A stretch of DNA of 63,835 bases from an uncultured Candidatus Saccharibacteria bacterium (GCA_964374065.1 CAYJWW010000001.1:1-63835); one strand, 5' to 3'; positions 5,441-59,364 are shown, counted from the stretch's first letter. The notes: generated from the letters alone by a model not told the origin. A program made the numbers and translations.

Positions 5441-5552
5441 GGTCGTTTCTCCTTGCGTAAACAAAGTCGGATCCGTTATGGATTATTTGGAAGGCCTACG
5501 GGCAAAGTACTCGCCTTACTTAGGTGCGTCAAGCCATTTGGCCTCAGTTCGC

Positions 5553-5590
5553 GCGAAAACAAAAGACCCCCGCCGAGGGGGCCTTCATAA
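5553..5590 (-). terminator. intrinsic terminator downstream of groEL
   Basis: On the minus strand, AAGGCCCCC-TCGGC-GGGGGTCTT is followed by TTGTTTTC. Confidence 0.6.
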
Positions 5591-5600
5591 ACGGGGTGGC

Positions 5601-7232: not shown

Positions 7233-7233
7233 G

Positions 7234-7524
7234 TTATTCGATGATTGCCAGTATATCTTCTTCGTCCCCGACCAAATACTTTTTCCCTTCGACCTCGATC
7301 TCATCGGGGCCGTATTTCTTGAAGAGGACCGTGTCTCCGACCTTGACCGACATTGGGATCCGCTCCCCCTTCTCGTTCGTCTTACCCGGCCCCGTAGCGA
7401 ACACCCTGCCGCGGACCGGCCGCTCTTTTTCCGCCGTTTCCGGAAGCACGATGCCTGACTTCGTCGTCTTTTCCTCTTCGAGCGGCTCGAGGAACACGCG
7501 ATTCGACAGTGGCTTGAAATTCAT
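7234..7524 (-). CDS. groS: co-chaperonin GroES
   Basis: MNFKPLSNRVFLEPLEEEKTTKSGIVLPE is a classic GroES sequence, and the gene sits immediately upstream of groEL. Confidence 0.95.
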   Translation of the reverse strand: MNFKPLSNRVFLEPLEEEKTTKSGIVLPETAEKERPVRGRVFATGPGKTNEKGERIPMSVKVGDTVLFKKYGPDEIEVEGKKYLVGDEEDILAIIE

Positions 7525-29700: not shown

Positions 29701-30140
29701 ATGGTTTTGTAGGAGTTGTCGAATTCGGTCCAGCGCGCGATGCGGCGCACCATCTTCTTCCACTCGTCCGCGAACTCGAGCACCTTCGCGCGGCAAACTG
29801 CGTTGAATTTCGCGATGCCGATCTCTTCTATCTGCTTCTTGCCGGAGATGCCGAGGTGCCGCTCCACAACCTCCTCGATGGGAAGTCCGTGGCAATCCCA
29901 TCCCCAGCGCCTGCGCACGAAGCGCCCGCGCATCGTCTGATAGCGCGGAATCACGTCCTTAATGGTGGAAGCCAGAATATGGCCATAGTGGGGAAGTCCG
30001 GTGGCAAAGGGCGGTCCGTCATAGAAAGTGAACGGCTCCCCGTCCTTTGTTTTCTCCAGCGTTTTCTCGAAGATTTTCTTATCTTCCCAAAACTTCAAAG
30101 TTTCTTCTTCGAGTTTTGCGGGATTGAATGGCTCGGGCAT
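26730..30140 (-). CDS. ileS: isoleucine--tRNA ligase (type 2-like) with a nested histidine-phosphatase domain
   Basis: HIGH-type PHYGH, CP1 editing signature AWTTTPWTLPGN, KMSKS, and Zn-binding Cys pairs. 1136 aa. Confidence 0.95.
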   Translation of the reverse strand: MPEPFNPAKLEEETLKFWEDKKIFEKTLEKTKDGEPFTFYDGPPFATGLPHYGHILASTIKDVIPRYQTMRGRFVRRRWGWDCHGLPIEEVVERHLGISGKKQIEEIGIAKFNAVCRAKVLEFADEWKKMVRRIARWTEFDNSYKTMDRDYMESVWWAFKEFWKKGLVYEGRRVLLYCPRCETPVSNFEVAMDNSYQDVTEEAVTVKFQITNNKSQVSSKLQLPSDAPIYLLAWTTTPWTLPGNVALAVGKDISYAITKKGDDYLIVAEDSPLGKELGHTGQKVRGEDLVGLVYEPLFDVPLLRQGSEGQAAFKVYLADFVSTEEGAGIVHTAVVYGEEDYELGQKVGLPVVPLLDEKGTFNDKAPELLRGMYFKDADKVVIEDLEKRGLLFAKTQFTHSYPHCWRCGNMLFYNAIPAWFINIQKIKRDLIRSNAKETNWFPGHLKHGRYEKSVEQAPDWNISRNRYWGNPIPVWKCETENCPPMVVGSIKELGVSRNTFIFSRHGEAEHNVRRINSSNVNDPYDLTEEGAVRAQRLAETLREMGGVDLIYASDFKRTRRTAEIVGSTLGIPVECDTRIREYNVGIFTGRPMEEFGSAIPASRRWDEAPEGGESWSDIRTRVLDFADEINRKHSGKRILVVSHGDPLWVLQQHFGSERPYPEFAVPFEMDVAVPDLHRPAIDEAVLKCPACGGKARRIKEIFDSWVEAGSMPFAEYHYPFDQKKTFESRYPGQFVAEYIAQTRAWFYVMHVVGHTLFRKAPFENVVTTGTILAEDGSKMSKSKANYPDPWAVIEKYGVDALRFYLMNSVVMQADNLNFSERELQNTYRKVILILWNVFNYYDTYASEAGFDPKTRWEEGKTFDSVLDRWALAKTQELVNAVTEHLDDYDTVKATRAIAEYIDDLSTWYVRRSRGRKDQEFFLTLRHCLLVASLTAAPFMPYISEAIFRKLDFIGGFPSVHLESWPGKKELSTEDHMLLKQMDVVRNIASLGLAFRKQANVPVRQPLPELRVKNQELKGADALLEVLKQELNVKEIAFDPNLKEEVVLNTELTAELQMEGLVRGLERAIQEARKRAGFKVGEKTALLYRTADEDLRRAMGSINRVKTYLSGVRENADITGGPISIDGKEISLELRRG
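28122..28652 (-). other. histidine phosphatase (PGAM-like, His_Phos_1) domain inserted in IleS (aa about 497-673)
   Basis: All family motifs appear in order: SRHGEAEHN, LTEEGAVRAQRLA, IYASDFKRTRRTAEIV, IREYNVGIFTGRPMEEF, PEGGESWSDIRTRV, ILVVSHGDPL. Confidence 0.85.
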
Positions 30141-39266: not shown

Positions 39267-39488
39267 TTAAACTAAGTGCTTGTTGCGGGAAGTAAAACCG
39301 GAGCCTTGCTTCAGGTATTTTTCAAAGTCTAGAGCTTTTTTCTTATCCCAAAAACAACAATACCAAACAAGTTTAAACGGGACTTTGCTCGCAGTATGTT
39401 TTGATACATGCCAATTGTGATTCTTAACACGACCATCGGGATCCTCGCTGAAACCGGCGTAATAGCTTTTATCTTTTTCACTTCGCAC
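39267..39488 (-). CDS. GIY-YIG nuclease-family small protein, probably 5'-degenerate
   Basis: SEKDKSYYAGFSEDPDGRVKNHN...PFKLVWYCCFWDKKKALDFEKYLKQG matches the short GIY-YIG (URI) domain layout. The first strand reads NFLV with only a GTG start and no ATG upstream in frame. The region is low-GC. Confidence 0.55.
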   Translation of the reverse strand: MRSEKDKSYYAGFSEDPDGRVKNHNWHVSKHTASKVPFKLVWYCCFWDKKKALDFEKYLKQGSGFTSRNKHLV

Positions 39489-39520
39489 AAGAAAGTTTCC
39501 TCCCCCGCCCCTCCATTTTT

Positions 39521-39545
39521 TGCCCGCTCGCCGGATTTACTCTAG
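39521..39545 (+). repeat. left inverted repeat flanking the Cys-rich gene
   Basis: TGCCCGCTCGCCGGATTTACTctAG. 21/21 nt (23/25 overall) are identical to the reverse complement of 41368-41392. Confidence 0.95.
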
Positions 39546-39562
39546 GGCCAAGTGGAGATATA

Positions 39563-41365
39563 ATGGAGATAATGAGTACGGAAACTCGCCGATGCCAAAG
39601 TTGTAAAACCCAGTTTACGATTGAACCGGAGGACTTTCTGTTTTACAAAAAAATCAATGTCCCTCCACCGACTTTTTGTCCCGAATGCAGGATGATCCGG
39701 CGAATGAATTTCAGGAATGCTCGGGTGATGTACAAAAGAAAAGTTGAGCAGGCGAATTTGGAGGTTTTTTCTTCTTTTTCTCCCGATACACCCCTCACCA
39801 TCTATGAGCAAAGCTATTGGTGGTCTGGTGATTGGGACGCTATGCAGCGGGGCAAGCCGTATGACTTTTCACGACCGTTTTTTGTTCAACTCAAAGAACT
39901 GATGCAAAGAGTCCCGTGGCCATCTGGTTACAATCTCCGATCAGTAAACAGCGATTATTGCAACAATGTTACAGATTTGAAAAATTGCCATCTTTTATTC
40001 AATTCAGGATTTTCCGAATCCTCTGCCTATGGAGCGGAAATGTTGCGGTGCAATGAAGTTTTTGATTCAACCAAAGTCATCGGATGCGAATTATCCTATG
40101 AACTCCTTGATTGTGAAAAGTGCAATCGCGCTTTTTTCTCTCAGGATTGCGTTGGATGTTCAGAAATTTATTTTTCTCAAAATCTAACAGATTGCCATAA
40201 CTGCTTCGGGTGTATCAATCTCCGCCACAAGCAATACCGTATTTTCAATGAGCAGTACACAAAAGCGGAATACAAGGAATTTCTGAACAAGATCAACCTC
40301 GGCTCTTACAAGGTTGTTGAGGAAATGAAAGAAAAAAGTGTGAGCCACTATTTTCACTTCCCGCGGAGGTATGTGCATGGACAAAACAACAACAACGTAA
40401 GCGGCGATTACTTGGATCATTCAAAGAATACCCACCGTTCCTACTTGTGCAGAGAAATGGAGGATTGCAAGTATTGTCAGCTGATACTTTTTTTGCCCAG
40501 CCGAGAATCATATGACATGACAGTGGCCGGAGGGGAGTTATGTTATGAAGTTGAGGAAGGCGGGGGTTATGGCGTTAAATTTTCGTGGCTTGCATTGCCT
40601 AAAAATCTGAAAACGAGACAAATAAATCTTTTCGATATGGAATATTCGATGGAATGTTTTGATTCGTCATATCTTTTCGGGTGCATAGGTCTCAAAAATA
40701 AGCAGTACTGTATTTTGAACACGCAGTATACAAAAGAAGAATACGCAGAGTTGGTGCCGAAAGTTATTGATCACATGAACTCCATGCCATACACCGATAC
40801 AATGGGGCGTACTTATAAGTACGGAGAGTTTTTCCCGGTTGACCTTTCGCCTTTCGGATACAACGAGACAATCGCACAAGAATATTCCCCTTTGACAAAA
40901 AAAGAAGCGGTCGCGCGGGGTTATGCTTGGAGAGATACTGACGAGCAAAACTACAAGGCAACGGTTGAAGACAACGAACTCCCCGATAGCATTGACGAGG
41001 TAAAGGATTCGATCATCAATGAAAAAATTCATTGTGCTCATTCCGGGAAATGCAACGATGGTTGCACTTCCGTTTTCCGTATTATTCCGATTGAATTGCA
41101 ATTTTATCGAAGATTTAATCTCCCGATTCCGAGATTGTGCTCCAACTGCCGCTATTACCAACGAATCGTAAAACGAAATCCTTTACGTCTTTGGCGACGC
41201 AAATGCACATGTGGCGGAAACAAATCAGAGAACGGCGTTTATCAAAACACAACCGTACACTCTCACGCCGAGAATCCTTGCCCGAACCGGCTCGAGACCT
41301 CTTATGCGCCAGAGAAACCGGAGATTGTCTACTGCGAGCAGTGCTATAACAAGGAGATAGTTTAG
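39563..41365 (+). CDS. 600-aa Cys-rich protein with terminal zinc-ribbon modules and internal duplication; family not recognised
   Basis: N-terminus CQSCKTQFTIEPEDFLFYKKINVPPPTFCPECR; C-terminus CTSVFRIIPIELQFYRRFNLPIPRLCSNCR. Internal duplicates CFGCINLRHKQYRIFNEQYTKAEYKEF and LFGCIGLKNKQYCILNTQYTKEEYAEL. Many evenly spaced Cys. Low-GC. Confidence 0.8.
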   Translation: MEIMSTETRRCQSCKTQFTIEPEDFLFYKKINVPPPTFCPECRMIRRMNFRNARVMYKRKVEQANLEVFSSFSPDTPLTIYEQSYWWSGDWDAMQRGKPYDFSRPFFVQLKELMQRVPWPSGYNLRSVNSDYCNNVTDLKNCHLLFNSGFSESSAYGAEMLRCNEVFDSTKVIGCELSYELLDCEKCNRAFFSQDCVGCSEIYFSQNLTDCHNCFGCINLRHKQYRIFNEQYTKAEYKEFLNKINLGSYKVVEEMKEKSVSHYFHFPRRYVHGQNNNNVSGDYLDHSKNTHRSYLCREMEDCKYCQLILFLPSRESYDMTVAGGELCYEVEEGGGYGVKFSWLALPKNLKTRQINLFDMEYSMECFDSSYLFGCIGLKNKQYCILNTQYTKEEYAELVPKVIDHMNSMPYTDTMGRTYKYGEFFPVDLSPFGYNETIAQEYSPLTKKEAVARGYAWRDTDEQNYKATVEDNELPDSIDEVKDSIINEKIHCAHSGKCNDGCTSVFRIIPIELQFYRRFNLPIPRLCSNCRYYQRIVKRNPLRLWRRKCTCGGNKSENGVYQNTTVHSHAENPCPNRLETSYAPEKPEIVYCEQCYNKEIV

Positions 41366-41367
41366 TC

Positions 41368-41392
41368 CTGAAGTAAATCCGGCGAGCGGGCA
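41368..41392 (-). repeat. right inverted repeat flanking the Cys-rich gene
   Basis: The reverse complement reads TGCCCGCTCGCCGGATTTACTtcAG. It begins 3 nt after the stop codon. Confidence 0.95.
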
Positions 41393-41531
41393 TCGCTCCG
41401 CCTGCCCGATAGGGCAGAACGCCTCAATAAAGTTTTCTTCTTCCTTATTTGAACTTTTTGGGGGCGTGCGCGAAATCCGAGAACAATGTGAAACCCGCAA
41501 GTTGCGAGTTTTGCGATTTTCAGCGAAGAAG

Positions 41532-41846
41532 TGGAGATGGAGGGAATCGAACCCTCGTCTAAAGATGAAGCCAATGAACCTTCTACGAGCGTGTTTCGGT
41601 TGGGAACCGAACGAAGGCGATCCTGAATTTTCGTCCGAGGACCAGGATCGTCATCCTCGGCTTAACCTCCTTATATAAGACCGTACGATGCCTAAGAGGT
41701 ACAGGCGAGGCGGTCCTCTGGCTTACGCGTAAGCGAATGCCGGAGCTGCAACGTTTCGGTTGGCAGTTAAATTGATTTGCGAGTTTTGCGACGTCGCGGT
41801 CGGCTCGCCAGCCCACGGCCAATCTTCATCGAAGCCGTGCATCCCC
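41532..41846 (-). ncRNA. ssrA: tmRNA (ssrA), tag ANRNVAAPAFAYA
   Basis: 5' GGGGATGCACGGCTTCGA and 3' GAGGGTTCGATTCCCTCCATCTCCA form an acceptor stem with a G3:U pair. The internal ORF GCC AAC CGA AAC GTT GCA GCT CCG GCA TTC GCT TAC GCG TAA lies at 41723-41764. Confidence 0.9.
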
Positions 41847-41869: not shown

Positions 41870-41898
41870 AGTATAACCGAGAATTGCTGAAAAGTCAA
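41870..41898 (-). promoter_or_regulatory. near-consensus sigma70-type promoter of ssrA
   Basis: The minus strand reads TTGACT-17 nt-TATACT. The -10 ends about 23 nt upstream of the mature tmRNA 5' end. Confidence 0.6.
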
Positions 41899-42000
41899 AT
41901 CTTAGAGCGAGCGGTATACCGCATCACATACACAAGGCGACCCGCCGTTTCGGGGGTCGCCTTCGCGTTTCTTGACGGAAGCGGCTGTAACCGATAGCGT

Positions 42001-42246
42001 ATGAATAGTTTCATCCAAGCCGTGCTATATCGGAAAGGAGACACCGTGGCGCTTGTGAGGCTCATTGGATTTACGACGCTCGATTGCGGGTGCGTCATCG
42101 GCAGATACCGGGAGATAGGAACCCAGCGCGAGCTCGCATATGTTGAGGAAAAAGGTGCCTCCTGCACGAATACCACCCATAGGCGAAGCAGCCGATTCAC
42201 CGAGCCGCCTGCAAAACCGGCCGAACCGCGCCGGAAAACCGAGTGA
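42001..42246 (+). CDS. hypothetical small protein (81 aa)
   Basis: ORF with plausible composition (MNSFIQAVLYRKGDTVALVRLIGFTTLDCGCVIGRY). Its stop overlaps the next ORF. No SD. Confidence 0.4.
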   Translation: MNSFIQAVLYRKGDTVALVRLIGFTTLDCGCVIGRYREIGTQRELAYVEEKGASCTNTTHRRSSRFTEPPAKPAEPRRKTE

Positions 42247-42254
42247 GGTGTCTC

Positions 42255-42515
42255 ATGCCGAAACTCACGATCGAAGTGAATGAAGCGGTCCACACGCTCT
42301 TGGGCCAGCCGGAGATCCGCTTCCTCGGCGAAACTCCGGAGGAAGTCGCTTCGTTCCTCGTCAAAAACGGCTGCATCGAGCTCGTTGCGAAAGGCGGCCT
42401 GCTCGACCACCTAGGAAGCTCGTCAACTCGGCGCCCGCCAGCTCCACCGCGGACGGCAAGGCGCCACATTGGGACAAGTCATGGAATCGAAATTCATCGT
42501 CGGCGTGGCGAATAA
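42255..42515 (+). CDS. hypothetical small protein (86 aa)
   Basis: The ATG at 42255 follows GAGGTG. The N-terminal 55 aa look protein-like (MPKLTIEVNEAVHTLLGQPEIRFLGETPEEVASFLVKNG). The tail is Arg/Pro-rich and overlaps the next gene. Confidence 0.45.
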   Translation: MPKLTIEVNEAVHTLLGQPEIRFLGETPEEVASFLVKNGCIELVAKGGLLDHLGSSSTRRPPAPPRTARRHIGTSHGIEIHRRRGE

Positions 42516-42837
42516 AGTGAGTGCGACGTGGAACATCGAGGAGCGCCGAGCGCGGGTTGCGGTGTATCCGGACCAAGAGAGCGATGTTCCCACCCATCCG
42601 GAACATCTGAATCTCCACTTCGTCTGCGCGGGCGTTGAGGCGGCGAACACCGTGCTCCGCGCGCACGACATAAACGTGCGCCTGCATGAACGGCAGAACC
42701 GCGAACTCCCGATCCGCTTTACCATCTCCGAGCCGATCAAGGAACAAGAACGGCCGGACCAAGTGATGCGGCGGATCGTCCGCGAAGTGGAATCGCAATT
42801 CGCGATGAAGCTCCGGAAGATCGCCCTGAATCGGTAA
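42481..42837 (+). CDS. hypothetical protein (118 aa)
   Basis: MESKFIVGVANKVSATWNIEERRARVAVYPDQ. Balanced composition, followed directly by a strong terminator. Confidence 0.55.
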   Translation: MESKFIVGVANKVSATWNIEERRARVAVYPDQESDVPTHPEHLNLHFVCAGVEAANTVLRAHDINVRLHERQNRELPIRFTISEPIKEQERPDQVMRRIVREVESQFAMKLRKIALNR

Positions 42838-42876
42838 TCCCTCGTTTTGCAAGCAAGACGAGGGATTCGCGTTTTA
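42836..42876 (+). terminator. intrinsic terminator
   Basis: AATCCCTCGT-12 nt loop-ACGAGGGATT followed by CGCGTTTTA. Confidence 0.7.
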
Positions 42877-43180
42877 ACCGGCTCAGCCGCTCTTAGCGGT
42901 GGCTGTTCCATTCCTTCTAGACACACGAAAAAGCCCCGAACCGCTCTGGCGGCAAGGGACCTTCGCATTTTCTATGCACAAAATGCCTTGACGAAGGGTA
43001 CGTTCGGCGCCATAGTAATGCCGTTCGCGTTCTTTGACAGTACTTGAATACCGCGCGGAAACACAATGCGCCTTTTAAAATAGACTGAAACAATAAGAAG
43101 GCGTACGGAGTTCCGCGAGGAATCGCCCGTTGTGAGGACGAGCGACTTTACTTAAAAAGTCGAAAAAACATTCGAGTCAT

Positions 43181-43894
43181 ATGATAAAACACATCGCTCT
43201 TTTTGCGATCGTGTGCGCTGCTGTCTTCGCGTTCGTTCCAGGGAACCAAGCTCTTGCATCGCACGGCGGAGCGGAGATCACGCAAGTGGTGACGCTCTCG
43301 TCTCAGCCGTTGGGTAAGGAAACGCTCCAATTGCTCGGGCAAACATTAGGAGCATTGAGGCAGGTCCTCGACACCATCGGCACGCGCGTGAATTCGGCGG
43401 ATCCGCAGGTCGCCTTTAGCGCGGCCCAGCGCCCGGCAGTCTATGCCGTACTGGGCGGGATCCGCGAGTCGCTTCTCTCGATCGACGCGCAGCTCGCGGG
43501 CAAGGCGGTTGCGGCGGGGTATCCGCAGGCGCCTCTGACCGCACAGACGCCCGCACCCGCTCCGGTAGCGCAGCGCGCGCCCGAAGGGGCTCCCGCCCCT
43601 GCGACCGCTTCGAATGAAGCCGCGCGGCAGCCGGCCGCCGCCACAGCCCAGCCCGCTCCGCAATTCAGCGCATCCGAGGTAGAGCGGACGGGGCAAACCG
43701 CGGTCGTTGCGGCGCGCGCCGAAACCGCACGGCGCTGGTTCTTCATCACTTTGGGGATCATCCTGCTCGCAGGTGCCGCGTTTTACTGGTGGCGCGAGCG
43801 ACAAGTCGCGAGCGAGGACGCAGTGTTCGAAGCTCCGCAATTCGCGACAGGTTCTCCCAAAGAAGACGCTCCCTCGTGGAGCCCGGGAACGTAA
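43181..43894 (+). CDS. secreted/anchored Ala-Pro-rich protein (signal peptide + C-terminal TM)
   Basis: MIKHIALFAIVCAAVFAFVPGNQALA looks like a signal peptide. It is followed by a helical region, an A/P/Q-rich linker, the TM helix WFFITLGIILLAGAAFYWW and a short tail. Confidence 0.65.
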   Translation: MIKHIALFAIVCAAVFAFVPGNQALASHGGAEITQVVTLSSQPLGKETLQLLGQTLGALRQVLDTIGTRVNSADPQVAFSAAQRPAVYAVLGGIRESLLSIDAQLAGKAVAAGYPQAPLTAQTPAPAPVAQRAPEGAPAPATASNEAARQPAAATAQPAPQFSASEVERTGQTAVVAARAETARRWFFITLGIILLAGAAFYWWRERQVASEDAVFEAPQFATGSPKEDAPSWSPGT

Positions 43895-43903
43895 CGGATC
43901 CGA

Positions 43904-43932
43904 GAGACCCCGAAAGGGGTCTTTTGGTTTTT
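43904..43932 (+). terminator. canonical intrinsic terminator
   Basis: GAGACCCC-GAAA-GGGGTCTT followed by TTGGTTTTT. Confidence 0.85.
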
Positions 43933-43959
43933 GACACGCTTCACCAATCGATATACAAA
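43931..43959 (+). promoter_or_regulatory. sigma70-type promoter-like element
   Basis: TTGACA-17 nt-TACAAA lies about 55 nt upstream of the ATG at 44013, which has the SD AAGGAGGAGGG. Confidence 0.5.
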
Positions 43960-44012
43960 TAGGGCGGAACCGCCCAAGAGGTGCGCCTCGCGGGCCAAAC
44001 AAGGAGGAGGGT

Positions 44013-44699
44013 ATGCCCTTACCGAACGAACTGTGCGGATTACGAACGCTCGCTGCCCGCGGACCCTTGGCCGACGATGACTGGTGCGCGCTCCTCGAGG
44101 CGCGCCACAGGCTCATCGCGCCGCAACTCGACCGATTCACGCTTCCCTCGCTGGGAACGTTCCAGTGCCTCAAAACGGAATCGCACTGGACACGCCAGAT
44201 CAGCTGTTTCGTCTCGAACACTACCGGCGATTCCCGGTTCTCGCTCGAGACGCAGGGACTCTTTGGATACTCGTGGAGCAGCCGGGAAGAAACGAGCCCC
44301 GACCGGCACGTCAACATGTGGTACGCACAGACCCTTCATCCAGCGGACGGATGTCTCCGCATCTGGGGACTCACTCGGAAGGGCAACTGGATCATTGCCA
44401 CCGTCGTATATGTCGGCGAGGAAGGATACAAGGGACGAGGCGCCGAACGCGCGACGGAAATCGGGATCCGCGAAGTCACCATCCAGGAGCTCGTCGCGCA
44501 ATCGAAGTGCCACCCGCGGGAGATCTGGAGGGCGCTGGGAAAGCGCTTTCACGAACTCGTTCAGATCCGGCGGGCGCAGTACGAGAACGCTCGCGAAATC
44601 GCGGCGGTTATGAACACCGAAGAGCAGCTCGAAGCGCTCATTGAAGAACGACTCAGGAAGGCGGAACATGGAGATCACAACGAACCGGCCTCCGCATGA
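44013..44699 (+). CDS. hypothetical protein (228 aa)
   Basis: Strong SD and balanced composition with a C-terminal helical tail. No family recognised. Confidence 0.65.
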   Translation: MPLPNELCGLRTLAARGPLADDDWCALLEARHRLIAPQLDRFTLPSLGTFQCLKTESHWTRQISCFVSNTTGDSRFSLETQGLFGYSWSSREETSPDRHVNMWYAQTLHPADGCLRIWGLTRKGNWIIATVVYVGEEGYKGRGAERATEIGIREVTIQELVAQSKCHPREIWRALGKRFHELVQIRRAQYENAREIAAVMNTEEQLEALIEERLRKAEHGDHNEPASA

Positions 44700-44871
44700 A
44701 AAACCCGTCGCGTTCGAGTACCTTTCGGACTACGGCTTCGCTGCCATATGCCCCTTCTGCGGGAAGCCGGCGGTACTCGAGGCGACCTGCGACGAAGGAA
44801 GGAAGTTCTGCTGCGAACGCGACGCCTGCAAGGATCGTGCCGCAGCGTTCGCCCGTGCCTTCGCGGCGTAA
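44668..44871 (+). CDS. small Cys-rich (zinc-finger-like) protein (67 aa)
   Basis: MEITTNRPPHEKPVAFEYLSDYGFAAICPFCGKPAVLEATCDEGRKFCCERDACKD. The ATG overlaps the end of the previous gene. A hairpin terminator follows. Confidence 0.5.
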   Translation: MEITTNRPPHEKPVAFEYLSDYGFAAICPFCGKPAVLEATCDEGRKFCCERDACKDRAAAFARAFAA

Positions 44872-44888
44872 CCCACTTGAACATCCAG

Positions 44889-44910
44889 AGGCCCCGACTC
44901 GTCGGGGCCT
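44889..44910 (+). terminator. hairpin terminator
   Basis: AGGCCCCG-ACTCGT-CGGGGCCT followed by TCGCATTTATTC. A second hairpin lies at about 44943-44968. Confidence 0.5.
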
Positions 44911-45026
44911 TCGCATTTATTCACAAGGCATTAAATAAGTTCGGGGCCGCTCGTGTGAGTGGCCCCGTATGAAAGATTCCGACCCCTGGGTCGGCAGGTT
45001 ACGCTCTATTGATGATGCCAAGGTGC

Positions 45027-45099
45027 GTATTTATATGATACCGCGAATGTGCACATCCGCAATACGGCCTGTGGATAACTCCGGTAAATATGTGGATAT
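45027..45099 (+). repeat. AT-rich tract plus three phased DnaA-box/iteron-like repeats (candidate replication origin)
   Basis: GTATTTATATGATA at 45027-45040. Then TGTGCACAT (45048), TGTGGATAA (45070; exact reverse complement of TTATCCACA) and TGTGGATAT (45091), spaced 22 and 21 nt apart. Confidence 0.5.
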
Positions 45100-45183
45100 C
45101 TCGCTTAACGGGCTTTTTCCGTGCTCTACAAATGAAACGGCGCGCAGGGCCTCCTTTCGGAGACGCGCTACGCGCCGGTGATG

Positions 45184-47907
45184 TCAGCCGTCCTCTGTGA
45201 CGGCTTGGCTTTCGAACCCTGCGGGGCCCGTACGCGGATCCATTGCCGCGATCCGGGCAAACCGCTCAAGCTCTGCCACGTGCCTGCCTTCCTTCACCCA
45301 CCAGGTGTTGATGTCGTCGTGCGGCGACCCTGGCGAAATGATCTCGGGCGTGCCGTTCCGAACCTCTCCCTGGAAACCGAGCTTCCGCACCTCGGCGATC
45401 AAGGCGTCTGCCGCCTTAATCCCCGCATCGTCGTTGTCGAGCGCGACGACGAGTGCGTTGCCGGTTCGCTTCACGGCCTCGACAACCGCTTTCGTAATCG
45501 TCGCGTTCGCGATGCCGGCGTACGCGATCGTTGATTTCCCCAGGCCTTCGAGGGTCAAGGCATCCATCACTCCCTCCACGAGCCAAACCTCGCGCCCGAG
45601 GGTACGGAACGATTCTCGTCCGAACCAACCATGGGGAACCCCCGTGTGTTCGGTGGAGAGCTTGAGATGCTTCGGCTTCCCCTCCGAACGGATCGTCCGG
45701 GCGTAAAAGTTCGTGAGCTTCCCGTCATAGGTCAGCGGAAAGGTGATGCGGCCGTCGACGAATAGCGAGTACGGCAGGCCATACTTTTGCTCCTCGCCTT
45801 TCAGGGCGGAGGAGATCGGGCGTTTCGCCGTCTCGAACGTGAATCCAAGGCGGGCGAGGAGCTGCGGCATCGACTGTCCCCAGCGCACATTCTCCGAGAG
45901 TCCGAGGATGCCGTAGTGGATAAGCTCGTCGAGGCTATACTCGCACTCCTTGATGAGCGCGGAGATGAGCCCGAGCGTTGCGAACCCCGCTCCTTTCTCG
46001 TATGCGAAGTCTGGATCGAGTCCCCGTTCGCGCCACAGGTAATCCGCCGCCGCGCTCCGTATGAAGCACGCGTGGAGGAGTTCTTGCACGGCCGCGAGGA
46101 AGCGATGATGCTCGGCGGGTACGGCGATCACGTCTCCCTTTGCGCCTCGGACTCGTCCGGCTCCTGGCGCGAAAGCGATCTCGTACTCCGCAGGAACGGA
46201 GCGCGGATCGATCCCTCCGGCGCGATTGCATCCGAAACAGTGGAACGCGCCTCTCGGGATGTTCACGTAGAACGATGGATTGCCGGGATCGGCGTGATCA
46301 GGGAATGGGCAACGGATATGCCCGCCGCGCCCAGGATTGAAGGACTTCGAAATGTCGATCTCTCCGTCACGGATCGCTTCGATCAAGTTCCCGAGATGAA
46401 GCGAGAATTTCCCGTCCGGCTCCCGCGCGATGATACGCGCATCGTCCACGAAACGGTACCGCTCAATGAGCTGGACCGCCCGCGTTCGAGGCGCGATCAT
46501 TGCATCCAAGAGCGGACTTTTTCTCCGGAGACGCGGTGCTTCCGACTTCCCGCGCAACGTTCGGATAAGGTAATTCGCGAGGTCGGCGTTCAGTGCCCGC
46601 ACGTCGGCGCGCCGTTCGGCTCTCTTCCAGCGTGCGACTACCCACTCGAGAAAGCCCTGCTTTTGCTCGCTCGGAGCGGAGGTCACGCCGTGGGAGATTG
46701 CGTTCGCGGTCGGAATGAAATACACCATGTCTCCGCGCTTCGCGCTCGTTTCCTCCCACAGCCGCCCGCCTCCCGCCAGGTGGTGGCTCATCGCGGCGAA
46801 GATGAGATAGGTGAGCATCTGGTCTTCGTGGCGCCGGATCGGCTTGTCGCTCACTTCGGCGAGTTGGATGATCTTCCCCCTCGTCCCATCGCCCACCGCG
46901 AATTTCCAGTCGCGGACCTCGGCTTCGAACTCGCCGAAGAGGACGATGAGGTTGCGGAGGAGCTCGACGAGCGAGCCCCACCGATACCGCGTCATCCGCT
47001 CGAGCACCCGAAACTGCGAGTGAGTCGGTGGTTTGCCGTTGATCGTCGCGATCTCCAGGGCGTCGATGCGCCGGCCCCCCATGCCGTGGATCGAGGGCTG
47101 GAAAATGGGTATCTCCGAGAAGAAGATCCTCGGCTGCTCCAATTCCTCCCGATAGAGGCGGAGCACCATTGCCCAGGCCATCGCGGTTAAAGCGGCAAGG
47201 TAACCGGAATCGGCGAGTTCCGGGCGTTGGATCGCCCTCGTGTAGTCGCCCATGATCGGCGCGAGCGCATCATAGAGCTCACAAACCTCCGGCCGAGCGG
47301 AAAAGTACCATGCCGACCAGTCGCGTGATGATTCGACGTTTGCCTGAAGCGCTTGCCATGCCGTATCGATCCGGTCGAACACGCGCTCAAGGGCCTTGCC
47401 CTCGAGCGGTTTCGCTTTCCCGCCGCCGGTCATATGGCCGTTCGGATATCCGTCGAAAAGCGGCAGCGGGCTTGGTTCGCCGAAAAGCTCGAGCTGACCC
47501 GCATGCGCGCGTTGCGGCTGATTCAGGAAAAGCGCTCCCGAAAAAAGCCGCGGCACCATTGCATGGCCGATGATCCCGAAAACCCGCGTGGAATCGGCCC
47601 GCCGATCGCGCTTCACGCCCGTGAGCTCTTCGAGCTGCGCGAAGAGCGCGTAGTGGAAGCGGTCGTTGTTCAGGTCGCCCCAGAGCGGCGGACCGCCTTT
47701 GCGGTTCATCCGCTTCGCGAGTTGGACCAAGGCGGCGAGCGCGGCCTCTTTCGAGTCCGCGATCTTCGCGGCGATGAGCGCCCGGACGAAAAGGTCAAGC
47801 CTTCCGCCCGAGAGCATTTCCCACGCCCAATCTCCGAACTGAGGAGAGGGCACGGGGAGATCGCTCAAGTCTTCGGCCGTCACCGGCTCGATGAGCTGGT
47901 CTTCCAT
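45184..47907 (-). CDS. fusion protein: N-terminal PD-(D/E)xK (RecB/Cas4-like) nuclease-like region + DnaG-type primase (zf-CHC2 + TOPRIM)
   Basis: zf-CHC2: CPFPDHADPGNPSFYVNIPRGAFHCFGCNRAG. TOPRIM: VWLVEGVMDALTL ... VVALDNDDAGIKAA. Nuclease-like motifs: GRRIDAL, EVRDWKF, QMLTYL. Start at the ATG at 47907, behind AAGGAG. Confidence 0.8.
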   Translation of the reverse strand: MEDQLIEPVTAEDLSDLPVPSPQFGDWAWEMLSGGRLDLFVRALIAAKIADSKEAALAALVQLAKRMNRKGGPPLWGDLNNDRFHYALFAQLEELTGVKRDRRADSTRVFGIIGHAMVPRLFSGALFLNQPQRAHAGQLELFGEPSPLPLFDGYPNGHMTGGGKAKPLEGKALERVFDRIDTAWQALQANVESSRDWSAWYFSARPEVCELYDALAPIMGDYTRAIQRPELADSGYLAALTAMAWAMVLRLYREELEQPRIFFSEIPIFQPSIHGMGGRRIDALEIATINGKPPTHSQFRVLERMTRYRWGSLVELLRNLIVLFGEFEAEVRDWKFAVGDGTRGKIIQLAEVSDKPIRRHEDQMLTYLIFAAMSHHLAGGGRLWEETSAKRGDMVYFIPTANAISHGVTSAPSEQKQGFLEWVVARWKRAERRADVRALNADLANYLIRTLRGKSEAPRLRRKSPLLDAMIAPRTRAVQLIERYRFVDDARIIAREPDGKFSLHLGNLIEAIRDGEIDISKSFNPGRGGHIRCPFPDHADPGNPSFYVNIPRGAFHCFGCNRAGGIDPRSVPAEYEIAFAPGAGRVRGAKGDVIAVPAEHHRFLAAVQELLHACFIRSAAADYLWRERGLDPDFAYEKGAGFATLGLISALIKECEYSLDELIHYGILGLSENVRWGQSMPQLLARLGFTFETAKRPISSALKGEEQKYGLPYSLFVDGRITFPLTYDGKLTNFYARTIRSEGKPKHLKLSTEHTGVPHGWFGRESFRTLGREVWLVEGVMDALTLEGLGKSTIAYAGIANATITKAVVEAVKRTGNALVVALDNDDAGIKAADALIAEVRKLGFQGEVRNGTPEIISPGSPHDDINTWWVKEGRHVAELERFARIAAMDPRTGPAGFESQAVTEDG

Positions 47908-48146
47908 GTTCCGTCTCCTTATGAGATGGGTTCCGAGTTCCAAGCTGCAAGTGGTAAGTTTTCAAACGAGTCCCTGCTGGCTATATAGCATTATTCGGAT
48001 CGCGGGCTCAAGTGAAGCTGTGCACAGCCTGTATGCGGGCGCACACCATGACGATGACGGCTGTGGTTTTTGCCATCGTCATCGCACGGAGATGCGTATC
48101 CCCCGCGAGCGCGATGCCCGCAGGGGATCCTGTGATGTGCCCGGCC

Positions 48147-48752
48147 TTAGGCCACGCGCTTCTTCAAGCGCGCCTCGTCGGCGATGACCTCCTCGATCTC
48201 GTCGCCGGCGGGCTTTACGCGGAATTCCACGACCTGGACGATCTTCACGCCCTTCACGTTCGCGGCCTTCTCGCGGTTCTCCTCCGACTGGAGGATCGTC
48301 TCGCGGTCCACCTCTTCCTTCTTCCGCACGAAGTCGGTGAGGCCGAGCGCCTTCAAGCGCCCGATCACGGCGTCCGCCTTGTCGGTCAATTCCACCTTGT
48401 GCGGATTCGTGTGCTCGCCGATCACTCCCGTGCCCAAGTCCACCGACTTGCGCGCGCCGTTCTCGGTAAGCTCGGCGCGGTTCGCGTCGAAGAAGAGGAA
48501 GAGCGCGTCCACGAGAGAGTCGATTCTCTGCTGGTGGGGGCCCGCCTTTTGGGTAACCTCTTCCTGGATCTTCGCCATGCGCCCTTGGGCGTCCGTGGCG
48601 ATCGTCTTGAGCTTCCGCTGCTCGTCGCCCAAGAGGCGCACGAGCCGCGCGGCCCCTTCGCGGTCCGCGGGGACCTCGACGGCGGGTTTCGGTTGGACGA
48701 TTTTCTCGCCGACCGGCTTTCGGGCGGCAACTGCCCCTTTCGCGCTTGCCAT
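48147..48752 (-). CDS. gam: bacteriophage Mu Gam-like DNA-end-binding (host nuclease inhibitor) protein
   Basis: ANRAELTENGARKSVDLGTGVIGEH and LKALGLTDFVRKKEEVDRETIL align closely with Mu Gam (ANRDELTNGGKVKTANLVTGDVSWR; LERLGLQRFIRTKQEINKEAIL), preceded by a coiled coil. ATG at 48752, behind GAGGAGG. Confidence 0.85.
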   Translation of the reverse strand: MASAKGAVAARKPVGEKIVQPKPAVEVPADREGAARLVRLLGDEQRKLKTIATDAQGRMAKIQEEVTQKAGPHQQRIDSLVDALFLFFDANRAELTENGARKSVDLGTGVIGEHTNPHKVELTDKADAVIGRLKALGLTDFVRKKEEVDRETILQSEENREKAANVKGVKIVQVVEFRVKPAGDEIEEVIADEARLKKRVA

Positions 48753-48861
48753 GGGAACCTCCTCTGACCGGCCTCCGGCGCCGGACGAAGTTTGGGATGC
48801 TGGATCAGAACCGCCATTAGATAAGCAAAGGAGAACGCCGCCGTCAAACGATGCGGGCCCG

Positions 48862-48872
48862 GTGGATAACTC
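48862..48872 (+). repeat. second copy of GTGGATAACTC (DnaA-box-like) upstream of gam
   Basis: The 11-mer is identical to 45071-45081, in direct orientation. The two copies bracket the gam-primase module. Confidence 0.7.
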
Positions 48873-48998
48873 GGCTCGTAAAAAGTTCTCACTCGCGTAT
48901 ACTGTGGGCAAAAGGTCGTTTGCGTAACCATGAAGCCCTTCGGGGCGCGCCGGGCTATGCCGGGCGGCCAATCGTTTGGATCTCGACGCAAGCGAGCG

Positions 48999-52572: not shown

Positions 52573-52923
52573 CTAGTCTGATCTGCCGGACTTACGGGGC
52601 CGATCCCAGCCGTATTTCTTCAGGTCGATTTTCCCGTCCTTAAGCGAAACCCCTTCTTTGCGAAGAAGAAGGATTTTCTTTTCCGGTCCGCCTGCATAAC
52701 CGCCTAACGTGCCGTCGGAGCGGACCACGCGGTGGCACGGCACCTGCCTGCCGGCAGGCAGGCCCGAGGACGCGCCGAAGGGATTTTTGTTCAACGCGTT
52801 CCCGACCGCGCGGTAGGCCGCGCGGTGTCCGATATGCTCCGCAAGCGCGCGATAGGTGGTCACCTTGCCGCGCGGAATTGCTTCAAGCGCCCGCCATACT
52901 CGCTCATTAAAATTAGCCGCCAT
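52573..52923 (-). CDS. MGMT-family protein (methylated-DNA--protein-cysteine methyltransferase, DNA-binding/active-site domain)
   Basis: PCHRVV active-site motif and VTTYRALA helix-turn-helix region. 116 aa. Confidence 0.85.
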   Translation of the reverse strand: MAANFNERVWRALEAIPRGKVTTYRALAEHIGHRAAYRAVGNALNKNPFGASSGLPAGRQVPCHRVVRSDGTLGGYAGGPEKKILLLRKEGVSLKDGKIDLKKYGWDRPRKSGRSD

Positions 52924-53410
52924 GGCCGTGCCGCTTGCGCCGCTCGATGAAGTCGCGGGATTCCTTTAACACCCGCTTCGTGCCGGCATATTTTTTCCCA
53001 AGTATCTTCATTGCGTCCTCGTAGAGGAACCAGGCAAACCCGCTGTGCTCCCGCGGCGAGATGCGCACTTCCGCTTGTTTGGTTTCCGCGAGGTATAAGA
53101 TGAGCGTGTCGTAGATCTTTTCGCGCCCGCGGTAGAAATGAAACTTCACGTATGTTTTGAAATCCGGGATGATGCGGAGCTCCGAGGGCTTAAGGCCGGT
53201 TTCCTCTTCGGTTTCGCGGAGTGCCGCTCCCAGGCTCTTTTCTCCCGAGGCAAAATGTCCTTTGGGAAAATTCCAGTAATTTCCCCTTCGATAGAGCAGC
53301 AGGAATTTAAGGCCCTCATCCGTTTTCCGATACACGACGAATCCTGCAACGACTTGCTTCTTCACCTGCACCTGTTTTTTCCGGTTCACATCGTGAGTCA
53401 TGCGGATCAT
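52913..53410 (-). CDS. NUDIX hydrolase
   Basis: Nudix box GHFASGEKSLGAALRETEEETGL. Start at ATG 53410, forming an ATGA overlap with the polX stop. Confidence 0.85.
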   Translation of the reverse strand: MIRMTHDVNRKKQVQVKKQVVAGFVVYRKTDEGLKFLLLYRRGNYWNFPKGHFASGEKSLGAALRETEEETGLKPSELRIIPDFKTYVKFHFYRGREKIYDTLILYLAETKQAEVRISPREHSGFAWFLYEDAMKILGKKYAGTKRVLKESRDFIERRKRHGHGG

Positions 53411-55173
53411 TTTACCACTATTCCCCATCTGCGCCGATTTCTCTTTATGCGTGCGAGCATTTTCTGAAGCGGCCATGCGTTAATCACATCTTTGCGCTCG
53501 ACCCATCCCCGCCTCGCCTGTCCGATGCCGTATTCAAGATTCTTAAGATGGGATGCCGCGTGCGCATCGGTATCGATCGCGAGCATTACCCCCGCCTCGA
53601 CCGCCTTTTTCGCATACTCTCCATGCAGATCAAGGCGATGGGGATCGGCATCGATTTCCAGCACCGTTCCGGTCCGCTTCGCGGCCTCGATCACCGCATC
53701 CATATCGAGCGCTATGGGCTCGCGCCGGCCAACGAGCCGGCATGTCGGATGGAACAAGATATCCGCATGCGGGTTCTCCATCGCCCGGATCACGCGCCGT
53801 GTTTGCTCCTCCCGGGGAAGGCCGAAGTGGGAATGGACCGCCACCCCCACAACGTCGAGTTTTGCGAGAACGTCGTCCCGGATATCGAGCGAACCGTCCT
53901 TCGTGATGTTCACCTCGGCGCTCTTCAGAATGCGCAGCTTTGAGTTTTTAGTTTTTAGTTTTGAGTTTAATCTGTCGATCTCCTTCATTTGGCGCAGGAG
54001 CTTCTTCTCGTCCGCGCCGCCAGTCATGGCAAGGGATTTCGTATGATCCGTGATCGCGAGGTATTCATGCCCCAGGAGCGCGGCCGCTTCCGCCATCTCT
54101 TCGATCGAATCCGCTCCGTCCGTCCAATCCGTCGTAACCTGGAGGTCCCCCCTGAGATCGCCGTAGCCTATCAGGCGCGGGAGCTTGCCCATGGCAGCCG
54201 CTTCGATCTCCCCGGTATCGGTGCGCATCTCGGGAGGGATCCACGGAAGTCCGAGTCGTTCATAGATGTCCTTCTCCGAGAACGCCGCTATCGGCTTCTT
54301 GCCCTTGAATAACCCGTACTCGTTCAATTTATATCCCTTCTTGATCGCGCGCTCGCGCATTTTGATGTTGTGCCGCTTATCACCCGTGAAATATTGAACG
54401 GCTGCGCCGAACGACTGCGGCGGCACCACGCGAAGGTCGGCGTCGATACCCGGCCGAAGCCGCACAAGTGTCTTGGAATCGCCCTTCGCATACACGTGAA
54501 CCACTTCGGGGAGTGATGCGAAGTAATCCATAACCGGCTTCGGCCTGTCGGATGTTACCAAAATATCTATGTCCCCCACGGTCTCCTGCCAGCGCCGATA
54601 CGATCCGCACACCACCACTTCTTTCACCCCTTTTGCTCCTTTCAATCTTTTCACGATCGACTCCACGAGGGGCCGCGCGACGCCTATCGGAAACCTTCCT
54701 CTCGCCCGCTTCTCGAAATCGATCGCTTTGAGTATCTTCGCTTCGAACTTTTCTCCCAGCCGCGGGAGCGTGCGGATCTTCTTTTCTCTCGCGGCCCGCG
54801 CGAGGTCCTTGATGCTCCGGATCCGAAGCGTTTCCCAAAGGACTTTCACCATCTTCGGCCCGAGCCCCTCGAGCGAGATAAGCGCTCCGATCTCCATTGG
54901 ATATTTTTTCTTGAACCGCTCGTGGTCTTTCGCCCTCCCCGTTTTCAACAGTTCTTCGATTCGAAGCGCGATGCCTGCGCCAACGCCGGGTATCCGCATA
55001 AGCCCCTTTTTGCCTTCTTTTGCGTAGACATCGGCAAGATCCTCGGTGAGCCCGCTCACCGCGTACGCGGCACGCTCATATGCGCGCGGCTTAAACGGCG
55101 CCTCCTCCATCTCGAGATAAACCGCGAGTTCTTCCAAGACCTTTGCGATCTCCTGGTTTGAAACACGGCGCAT
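53407..55173 (-). CDS. polX: DNA polymerase X family protein with C-terminal PHP phosphoesterase domain
   Basis: N-terminal HhH (IPGVGAGIALRIEELL), nucleotidyltransferase GSYRRWQETVGDIDILV, and PHP motifs (TDHT, VHSH, IDTDAH). Confidence 0.9.
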   Translation of the reverse strand: MRRVSNQEIAKVLEELAVYLEMEEAPFKPRAYERAAYAVSGLTEDLADVYAKEGKKGLMRIPGVGAGIALRIEELLKTGRAKDHERFKKKYPMEIGALISLEGLGPKMVKVLWETLRIRSIKDLARAAREKKIRTLPRLGEKFEAKILKAIDFEKRARGRFPIGVARPLVESIVKRLKGAKGVKEVVVCGSYRRWQETVGDIDILVTSDRPKPVMDYFASLPEVVHVYAKGDSKTLVRLRPGIDADLRVVPPQSFGAAVQYFTGDKRHNIKMRERAIKKGYKLNEYGLFKGKKPIAAFSEKDIYERLGLPWIPPEMRTDTGEIEAAAMGKLPRLIGYGDLRGDLQVTTDWTDGADSIEEMAEAAALLGHEYLAITDHTKSLAMTGGADEKKLLRQMKEIDRLNSKLKTKNSKLRILKSAEVNITKDGSLDIRDDVLAKLDVVGVAVHSHFGLPREEQTRRVIRAMENPHADILFHPTCRLVGRREPIALDMDAVIEAAKRTGTVLEIDADPHRLDLHGEYAKKAVEAGVMLAIDTDAHAASHLKNLEYGIGQARRGWVERKDVINAWPLQKMLARIKRNRRRWGIVVK

Positions 55174-58728: not shown

Positions 58729-59364
58729 TCAAAAGAGCTTCGGCTGAGGTGCATCCTCCGATGGCGCGGCGCCCTGCTCGCGAAACGGCGATGCGGCAAT
58801 GAGTTTTTCGTAGTTTCGGAGTGCGACCGCGAGTTTTTTAAAGCTTTCCCGGAATTGCAGCATCACTTCCGTGCCTCGCAGCGCCGCCGCCGGATGGAAA
58901 AGCGGCACGATGAGCCTGTGTTTCATGCGGAACACCTTGCCCTGGTCGCGGGTGATCTTTGCCGCCGGCAGGAAGAAATTCATTGAAAAACGCCCAAGGG
59001 TCGCGATGATCTTCGGCTCGATGCATTCGATCTGCCGCGCAAGATAGGGCTGGTAGGCCTCGATCTCTCCGGGAAGCGGGTCGCGATTTTCCGGCGGACG
59101 GCGTTTGACGATGTTCGTGATATATACGTCTTCCTCCTTCCATCCGATACTCCGGATGCATTCGCGCAAAAGCTGCCCGCCGCGCCCCACGAAAGGGCGC
59201 TTTTGGACGTCTTCGTGATAACCCGGGGCTTCACCGATAAACATGACTTCGGCTGCCGGACTCCCTTCCCCAAACACAAGGTTCGTCTGAAGCGGCAGTG
59301 TTTCATCCGCGGCCATTTCAGCCTCGAGTCCCTGGAGCAGTTTTTCTTTCTCGCCACGCGTCAT
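58729..59364 (-). CDS. udg: uracil-DNA glycosylase, family 4
   Basis: GEAPGYHEDVQKRPFVGRGG and HPAAALR motifs. Confidence 0.9.
   Translation of the reverse strand: MTRGEKEKLLQGLEAEMAADETLPLQTNLVFGEGSPAAEVMFIGEAPGYHEDVQKRPFVGRGGQLLRECIRSIGWKEEDVYITNIVKRRPPENRDPLPGEIEAYQPYLARQIECIEPKIIATLGRFSMNFFLPAAKITRDQGKVFRMKHRLIVPLFHPAAALRGTEVMLQFRESFKKLAVALRNYEKLIAASPFREQGAAPSEDAPQPKLF

Follow-up and report, generated by a model that had tools for sequence, protein, structure and literature searches.

We find that a gene on the minus strand of a 63.8-kb stretch of DNA (63,835 nucleotides (nt) in full; hereafter the window), at positions 45184..47907, encodes in a single polypeptide of 907 amino acids (aa) plus stop both a RecB-type nuclease domain and a DnaG-type primase. 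That the open reading frame (ORF) is real and that the two domains reside in one chain is confirmed, and we consider it very likely that the nuclease core and the primase have each been identified correctly. The fusion is a solitary chromosomal gene of a bacterium of the Candidate Phyla Radiation (CPR, or Patescibacteria), probably a relative of Saccharibacteria. Based on its sequence and on a structural model, we propose that it may act as an accessory nuclease-primase that is recruited by the sliding clamp and serves DNA repair or replication restart; to this statement as a whole, including the mechanism set out below, we assign a probability of roughly one half. What is new here is the architecture, together with a sequence family of RecB-like nucleases, while both domain superfamilies are already well known. 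A literature search on nuclease-primase fusions and on CPR primases found no PD-(D/E)xK-DnaG fusion described in the searchable literature. The initial annotation of the window, which knew of no described fusion with this architecture, holds in this respect, but the protein is not a one-off: it belongs to a family found across the CPR.

The translation of 45184..47907 runs without internal stops, and a public protein cluster (P0001) is identical to it and likewise 907 aa long. The longest version of the ORF begins at a TTG codon at 47943 and comprises 919 aa; a Shine-Dalgarno sequence, AAGGAG, can be read from the DNA at 47915..47920 on the minus strand, 7 nt 5′ of the ATG at 47907. We number residues from this ATG throughout, so that D294, D345 and K347 of the initial annotation, counted from the TTG, become D282, D333 and K335. 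The 907-aa ORF and all the motifs quoted for it were recovered in place, namely FSEIPIF (E265), GRRIDAL (D282), EVRDWKF (D333 and K335) and QMLTYL (Q363 and Y367) in the N-terminal part, the CHC2 finger at aa 533-564 and the TOPRIM stretch WLVEGVMDALTL...ALDNDDAG at aa 773-833. All features of the gene given below lie on the minus strand.

By sequence, a DnaG-type primase composed of a zinc finger, a catalytic N-subdomain and a TOPRIM domain makes up the C-terminal half. Residue conservation, here and in the nuclease half, refers to a family alignment of 150 representatives that share 21-47% identity, with up to 149 residues per column. The zinc-binding CHC2 domain (aa 521-566; 46210..46347) is delineated by PF01807, by alignment with the DnaG of Aquifex and by conservation, and its ligands C533, H538, C557 and C560 are kept across the family. 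PF01807 (Zn_ribbon_DnaG) matches aa 532-564 at 3.2e-5, its 24.1 bits falling slightly below the 24.9-bit cut-off, and is detected in 30 of 68 family members (best 5.5e-10). The RNA-polymerase N-subdomain (aa 567-770; 45598..46209) follows, supported by TIGR01391, PF08275, the Aquifex structure 2au3 and conservation; PF08275 is matched in 8 of the 68 members, and the motifs R.TFPL...FY[GA]R and H747-x-K749-L are retained throughout the family. The TOPRIM domain (aa 771-870; 45298..45597) is recognised by Pfam Toprim_2 (2.9e-11, aa 775-850) and by its conserved acidic residues: E778 (107/108), D826 (106/109), D or N at position 824 of the D824-x-D826 pair, D782, and D865-x-N867. The best profile match overall is PHROG_47, 'DNA primase' (2e-22, aa 522-875), and NCBIfam TIGR01391 (dnaG) is matched at 9.7e-18, with aa 712-849 aligned to positions 194-332 of the model. 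Among PDB sequences, Aquifex DnaG 2au3 is the only match (1.5e-7), its alignment covering zinc domain and catalytic core alike. The assignment of this half to CHC2 and TOPRIM primases, first made from motifs, is therefore matched by the profile checks. At 64.2 bits, TIGR01391 stays short of the 283.6-bit cut-off for dnaG equivalog status. Beyond the TOPRIM domain, the protein ends after 37 aa in a short, non-conserved tail (aa 871-907 plus stop; 45184..45297) that has no Pfam match and is missing from the aligned homologues; a DnaB-binding domain was not found by Pfam.

The N-terminal half (aa 1-520) had no match in Pfam, PHROGs, NCBIfam or PADLOC, so that the profile search against PDDEXK and Cas4 families, which the initial annotation had suggested, came back empty and support for a nuclease derives from fold and motif conservation. 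AlphaFold2 (AF2), run on aa 1-520 with a 97-sequence alignment, returned a model with a mean predicted local distance difference test (pLDDT) of 89.7 and a predicted template modelling score of 0.88; an earlier run with a 4-sequence alignment had given a pLDDT of 46 and was not usable. In this model, a helical N-terminal region (aa 1-132; 47512..47907; block pLDDT 80-97) carries three near-invariant residues, D78 (138/141), G111 and H115 (both 143/143). A second helical stretch (aa 163-228; 47224..47421; helices at 170-226) leads up to the predicted PD-(D/E)xK, RecB-like nuclease core (aa 229-455; 46543..47223), which is delimited by the model, by Foldseek and by conservation. A linker with a small helix/strand element (aa 456-520; 46348..46542), in which D488 is conserved and near which stand-alone homologues end, connects to the primase. 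Within the core, a long helix (aa 229-254) is followed by strand 1 (aa 262-267, bearing E265), strand 2 (aa 280-289, bearing D282), two inserted helices (aa 296-324), strand 3 (aa 327-336, bearing D333 and K335), a helix (aa 358-377, bearing Q363 and Y367) and two further strands (aa 389-397 and 404-409, with Y396 on the first). This corresponds, at the level of predicted secondary structure, to an alpha-beta-beta-beta-alpha-beta topology with the motifs on the expected elements.

These motifs are not a matter of chance, as they are kept in 98-100% of the aligned representatives: E265 in 147/149, D282 in 149/149, D or E at position 333 in 147/148, K335 in 148/148, Q363 in 144/147 and Y367 in 145/146. 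Other retained core residues are G339 and D340 (148/148 each), H360 (139/147) and Y396. In line with a RecB-like core, Foldseek against the PDB placed MGME1 first (E 0.04, probability 0.8), and among the top 34 matches, with helical noise mixed in, were also AddB, the alkaline exonuclease LHK-Exo, CinB, Rai1, Exo5 and a putative exonuclease. Against BFVD, the named matches in the top 50 were nearly all PD-(D/E)xK, RecB-family, Cas4-like, ExoVIII or YqaJ proteins, with best probabilities of 0.99-1.0 at E values of about 4e-3. Structure prediction and fold comparison thus retrieved mostly nucleases of the RecB/MGME1/AddB/Cas4 type, and the nuclease core originally suspected from four short motifs is borne out by fold and conservation alike. 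In an hhalign comparison with a CPR family of MGME1-like proteins (PF12705), E265, D282 and D333/K335 are matched, though weakly, to that family's own E, D and DxK, and this pairing comes out correctly once the insertion at 292-325 is taken out. Since no conserved cysteine precedes aa 533 in the 150-sequence alignment, the module is not an Fe-S nuclease of the Cas4/AddB type; this candidate, to which Exo5 also belongs, was rejected for want of the four conserved cysteines. We hold with high confidence that the module adopts the modelled PD-(D/E)xK fold, and the conserved motifs make it probable, if less firmly so, that it is an active nuclease.

Between the two N-terminal helical regions lies a predicted disordered loop (aa 133-162; 47422..47511), the only low-confidence segment of the AF2 model, with pLDDT below 50 at 133-140 and 143-162. 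It contains the sequence QLELF (aa 138-142; 47482..47496), which resembles a beta-clamp-binding motif, and a second motif, LPLF, at aa 148-151. The bacterial clamp-binding motif described by Dalrymple et al. in 2001 reportedly reads QL[SD]LF, and QADMF, from the alpha subunit of Pol III, is among its variants. In the family alignment, the corresponding columns are kept (Q138 in 124/143, F142 in 121/141), and a loose Qxx[LIMF][FLWY] motif occurs in the loop of 99 out of 146 members, 29 of which have two copies. QL.LF itself is found in 33 members, eight times as an exact QLSLF, and its density in the loop is 75-fold that of the remaining protein. We thus regard QLELF as a putative motif of the beta-clamp-binding type.

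How widespread is this protein? A HMMER search with an N-terminal profile against 1.84 billion representatives returned 202 clusters at 50% identity with E ≤ 1e-3, 139 of them below 1e-30. Most members are fusions of 870-960 aa, and around 36 of the 150 best-scoring representatives measure 530 aa or less. Stand-alone module genes with a stop codon of their own and unrelated genes downstream are present at four loci (L004, L006, L018 and L020); they keep the same catalytic residues as the fusions, and their existence identifies the nuclease module as an independent unit. A pattern scan of GTDB yielded six loci in six species genomes, three of Saccharibacteria and three of Paceibacterota, all metagenome-assembled genomes (MAGs). 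Every member with an organism name belongs to the CPR, those named at NCBI being all Patescibacteria or Paceibacterota, and as far as such names go the family is confined to this group. The labels themselves ('toprim domain-containing protein [Patescibacteria group bacterium]', 'CHC2 zinc finger domain-containing protein [Candidatus Paceibacterota]' and 'hypothetical protein [Candidatus Paceibacterota]') are generic. A metagenome scan added nine loci only, short for the most part, and a scan of IMG/VR detected no relatives on viral contigs. The closest relatives of the fusion (L001, L007 and L008) are 46% identical to it. The other proteins of the window share 54-61% identity with those of one Saccharibacteria MAG.

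What might such an enzyme do? As a DnaB-binding domain is not present, recruitment probably proceeds via the clamp-type motif. The loop would bring the protein to clamps that sit at primer termini, at gaps or at forks that have stalled or broken, and not to the DnaB helicase. There, a 5′ end or flap would be cut back by the RecB-like domain in the manner of MGME1, Exo5, Dna2 or AddB-type enzymes, and the DnaG domain would synthesise an RNA primer on the single-stranded DNA that is exposed. Such priming would let synthesis restart, which would amount to DnaB-independent restart or gap repair, not to bulk lagging-strand priming. In its most specific form, namely that the CPR possesses a clamp-tethered, DnaB-independent enzyme that couples RecB-like 5′-end or flap cleavage to DnaG-type repriming, the proposal is a tentative one, to which we give clearly less credence than to the broader statement. 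By analogy, an enzyme of this kind may be the bacterial functional counterpart of PrimPol/LigD-type enzymes, built from wholly different domains.

The neighbourhoods of family members offer some further orientation. In the window, a repair cluster on the minus strand (52573..55173), identified by Pfam, consists of PolX-PHP (53407-55173), NUDIX (52913-53476) and an Ogt/MGMT-like gene (52573-52923), the latter encoding a single-domain protein of 116 aa with the motif PCHRV; a UDG gene (58729-59364, minus strand) lies a few kb from this cluster. At the loci of the three closest relatives, PolX, NUDIX, Ogt and the fusion gene follow one another contiguously in this order, on the same strand and with short gaps. 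Elsewhere, UvrC and UvrA genes adjoin the module gene (L020), and HhH-GPD (L018), RmuC together with an ExoX-like gene (L023), or RtcB and archease (L019) are found near a family member. In one Saccharibacteria MAG (L003), a 304-aa ORF directly downstream of the fusion (6557-7471, plus strand) has a weak match to GIY-YIG/group I intron endonucleases. At L004, the stand-alone module gene is convergent with a gene (1748-2521, minus strand) for a 257-aa MGME1-like PD-(D/E)xK protein. This latter protein belongs to a very large CPR family of its own (1831 matches), few members of which match PF12705 and some of which are named 'genome maintenance exonuclease 1' at JGI. Next to the fusion gene of L016, immediately upstream, lies a PycTM-domain gene.

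Several observations weigh against a clamp-recruited nuclease-primase with a role in repair. The association of family loci with repair genes is suggestive but anecdotal, and two loci (L021 and L022) show no repair-gene neighbours. The strict QL.LF motif is found in those 33 of 146 members only, and the conserved LF within the flexible loop could instead be part of an arch through which DNA is threaded. As for the nuclease, Pfam scans of the 68 family members retrieved no nuclease family at E ≤ 0.1, and two N-terminal profiles searched against PDB sequences gave noise only (ferritin/Dps and designed proteins). The Foldseek E values are modest and the TM-scores low (0.17-0.38), the query being a multi-domain segment of 520 aa, and the hhalign pairing with MGME1-like proteins is non-significant (P 0.1, or 0.02 once the insertion at 292-325 is removed). 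Lastly, 50 residues separate D282 from D333-x-K335, with a helical insertion in between, a spacing that is unusual for the fold.

Could the fusion simply be the sole replicative primase of its host, that is, a lineage-specific DnaG in which an N-terminal extension replaces the helicase-binding domain? The gene is chromosomal, sits among housekeeping genes in synteny with its relatives and has intact primase motifs, and a hidden Markov model (HMM) of the family's primase part detected no second primase or other DnaG-type gene in the window. However, the window is a small part of the genome, and a dnaG of its own, if present, lies outside; a search for sequence beyond its ends retrieved just short alternative contigs that stop at the window's edges. 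The same HMM does detect, at 1e-27, a canonical DnaG on a 255-kb Patescibacteria contig (L016), where a dnaG-rpoD pair (4264-7298, plus strand) precedes the family member P0024 at a distance of about 4 kb. This DnaG has 601 aa, comprises zinc ribbon, DNAG_N, TOPRIM and DnaB_bind, and is 27% identical to the primase of P0024. As P0024 has this canonical dnaG-rpoD pair close by, the family represents a second primase. Further points against a sole primase are the sparseness of the family (202 clusters among 1.84 billion representatives, and six species genomes by pattern scan), the occurrence of the nuclease module without a primase, and a TIGR01391 score far under the equivalog cut-off. We thus deem it unlikely that the fusion is the only primase, in agreement with the initial annotation, which had doubted that it was the chromosomal DnaG and which is upheld by the coexisting dnaG-rpoD pair as well as by 64 bits against a cut-off of 283.6. 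An inert N-terminal half, in which a PD-(D/E)xK-derived domain merely binds DNA or serves as a scaffold and the primase alone is enzymatic, appears to us similarly improbable. Inactive PD-(D/E)xK domains exist, of the AddB type and others, and the missing nuclease HMM match and the unusual insertions in the core would be compatible with one. Yet E, D, D/E-x-K and QxxxY are near-totally kept in some 150 representatives as divergent as 21-47% identity, and the stand-alone forms hold the same residues.

The remaining alternatives draw on the genomic surroundings. Immediately upstream of the fusion gene, on the same strand, lies a gene (48147..48971) for a Mu Gam-like, Ku-related end-binding protein (Phage_Mu_Gam 1.7e-26; PHROG_491 2.3e-29), and PolX-PHP is 5.5 kb away and part of the same cluster as the fusion in the closest relatives. 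By analogy with Ku and LigD, the fusion might thus process double-strand breaks together with Gam and PolX in this genome, all the more as RecB-like nucleases commonly act on DNA ends. We rate this as rather unlikely. Searches by tblastn found no Gam in 15 other loci, and the annotations of loci L016-L023 list no Gam family either; between Gam and the fusion gene there is a gap of 240 nt with a stem-loop in it; a ligase partner was not observed; and the clamp-type motif points to primer termini, not to free ends. The Gam neighbour noted at the outset is therefore real but no feature of the family, and the idea of an end-targeted activity is weak because the adjacency is found in this window only; a Gam-coupled system as a family property was rejected on the same ground. 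In the Gam-like protein, some 100 aa precede the Gam domain (aa 105-254) as an N-terminal extension; its gene stands by itself among chromosomal genes, and no other phage genes are nearby. Least probable in our view, and very much so, is a mobile-element or defence module, or the remnant of one, for instance the replication primase of a phage or plasmid, or a defence protein of the TOPRIM-nuclease type. Here, one may point to Toprim_2 as the best Pfam match of the TOPRIM domain, to a phage family, PHROG_47, as the best profile overall, to Gam being typically a phage gene, to the tmRNA gene and a low-GC stretch 3-6 kb away, and to PADLOC matches, which cover the DnaG-like parts of DRT models only (RTasDnaG-like, 2e-20). 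On the other side, the family has no IMG/VR relatives, and no integrase, relaxase, capsid, reverse transcriptase or defence ATPase partner was found at any of at least 12 family loci. The neighbours in the window are core genes of an ordinary chromosome (ArgRS, SmpB, tmRNA, MurB, IF3/L35/L20, GroEL, RNase J, RNase Y and IleRS), housekeeping genes likewise surround the family members at loci L016-L023, the GC content of the fusion gene is similar to that of the remaining window, and the gene lies 5′ of ssrA, which is not the usual side of integration. A defence system was rejected given these housekeeping neighbours and the lack of an ATPase or reverse-transcriptase partner gene and of an island, and neither the linear element nor the defence function that the initial annotation had contemplated is borne out: we see no trace of a linear element, a phage or a defence island.

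How does an accessory, clamp-recruited nuclease-primase compare with known systems? The fusion belongs neither to the dnaG equivalog nor to any curated nuclease family. With bacterial DnaG (TIGR01391; Aquifex 2au3) it shares the CHC2 domain, the motifs of the N-subdomain and a TOPRIM domain whose E and DxD are conserved, all in the same order. In contrast to DnaG, its primase occupies the C-terminal half of the protein and lacks both a C-terminal helical subdomain and a DnaB-binding domain; its gene lies outside an rpsU-dnaG-rpoD context, and a true DnaG coexists with it in one family member. RecB-family QxxxY nucleases (MGME1, Exo5, AddB/RecB, Cas4 and lambda-exo/RecE-like enzymes) provide the best fold matches to the module and have the same order of E, D, (D/E)xK and QxxxY on strand, strand, strand and helix. 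Unlike these enzymes, the module shows no similarity to them at the HMM level, has its D and (D/E)xK set apart by the helical insertion of 50 residues, and possesses a large N-terminal helical region with invariant D78, G111 and H115; compared to Cas4, AddB and Exo5, it has no conserved cysteines and no Fe-S cluster.

Other systems are related to the fusion by organisation. LigD, together with Ku, likewise unites a nuclease and a primase-type polymerase in one polypeptide, and a Ku-related Gam is adjacent in this window; however, the archaeo-eukaryotic primase-polymerase, phosphoesterase and ligase domains of LigD are all absent from the fusion, and the Gam adjacency is not conserved. NucS/EndoMS, Dna2 and FEN1, the first two of which contain a PD-(D/E)xK domain, are nucleases whose recruitment to primer termini, or coordination there, relies on a short motif that binds the sliding clamp. 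The fusion resembles them in the putative QLELF-type motif of its disordered loop, but there is no sequence relationship, its motif is internal and not C-terminal, and none of those nucleases is joined to a primase. In the T7 gp4 and Twinkle primase-helicases and the DnaG-like domains of DRT/UG systems, a DnaG-type primase also serves as a module fused to a DNA-handling activity, whereas the partner in the present case is an N-terminal nuclease and there is neither helicase nor reverse transcriptase.

Other features of the window deserve brief mention. The tmRNA gene (41529-41846, minus strand) is flanked directly on its 3′ side by a stretch of low GC content (0.46 versus about 0.57; 39300-41846) that holds an orphan ORF of 600 aa (39563-41365, plus strand) with only a weak match to PHROG_15341. 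Possibly, this stretch is a small islet that was acquired at ssrA; a search of its flanks for att-like repeats found none. Between the tmRNA and the fusion gene (41895-45181), there are only orphan ORFs without family matches (171, 181, 323, 212 and 87 aa), several of them overlapping on both strands. An IleRS-like protein of 1136 aa (26730-30140, minus strand) bears an unusual insertion, a His_Phos_1 domain (aa 501-655) with a tRNA-synt_1 stretch on either side of it, and in a ThyX homologue of 583 aa (3713-5464, minus strand) the Thy1 domain accounts for aa 363-537 only, preceded by an N-terminal extension of about 350 aa.

What does this mean for the biology of these organisms? The genomes of CPR bacteria are tiny and their repair systems pared down, and the proteins specific to them are for the most part unannotated. 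The present analysis defines a conserved, unnamed family, hitherto hidden behind generic database names. Strong selection acts on both of its catalytic centres, and its N-terminal module, as a sequence family of RecB-like nucleases that is new, merits a profile model of its own. The proposed role lends itself to direct testing by a handful of point mutants and an assay of DnaN binding. If trimming is indeed coupled to repriming at clamps, this would be a new bacterial route of gap or fork repair. It would also entail a new kind of primase recruitment, and such a mode is a possibility to which the family points: with the clamp in place of the helicase.

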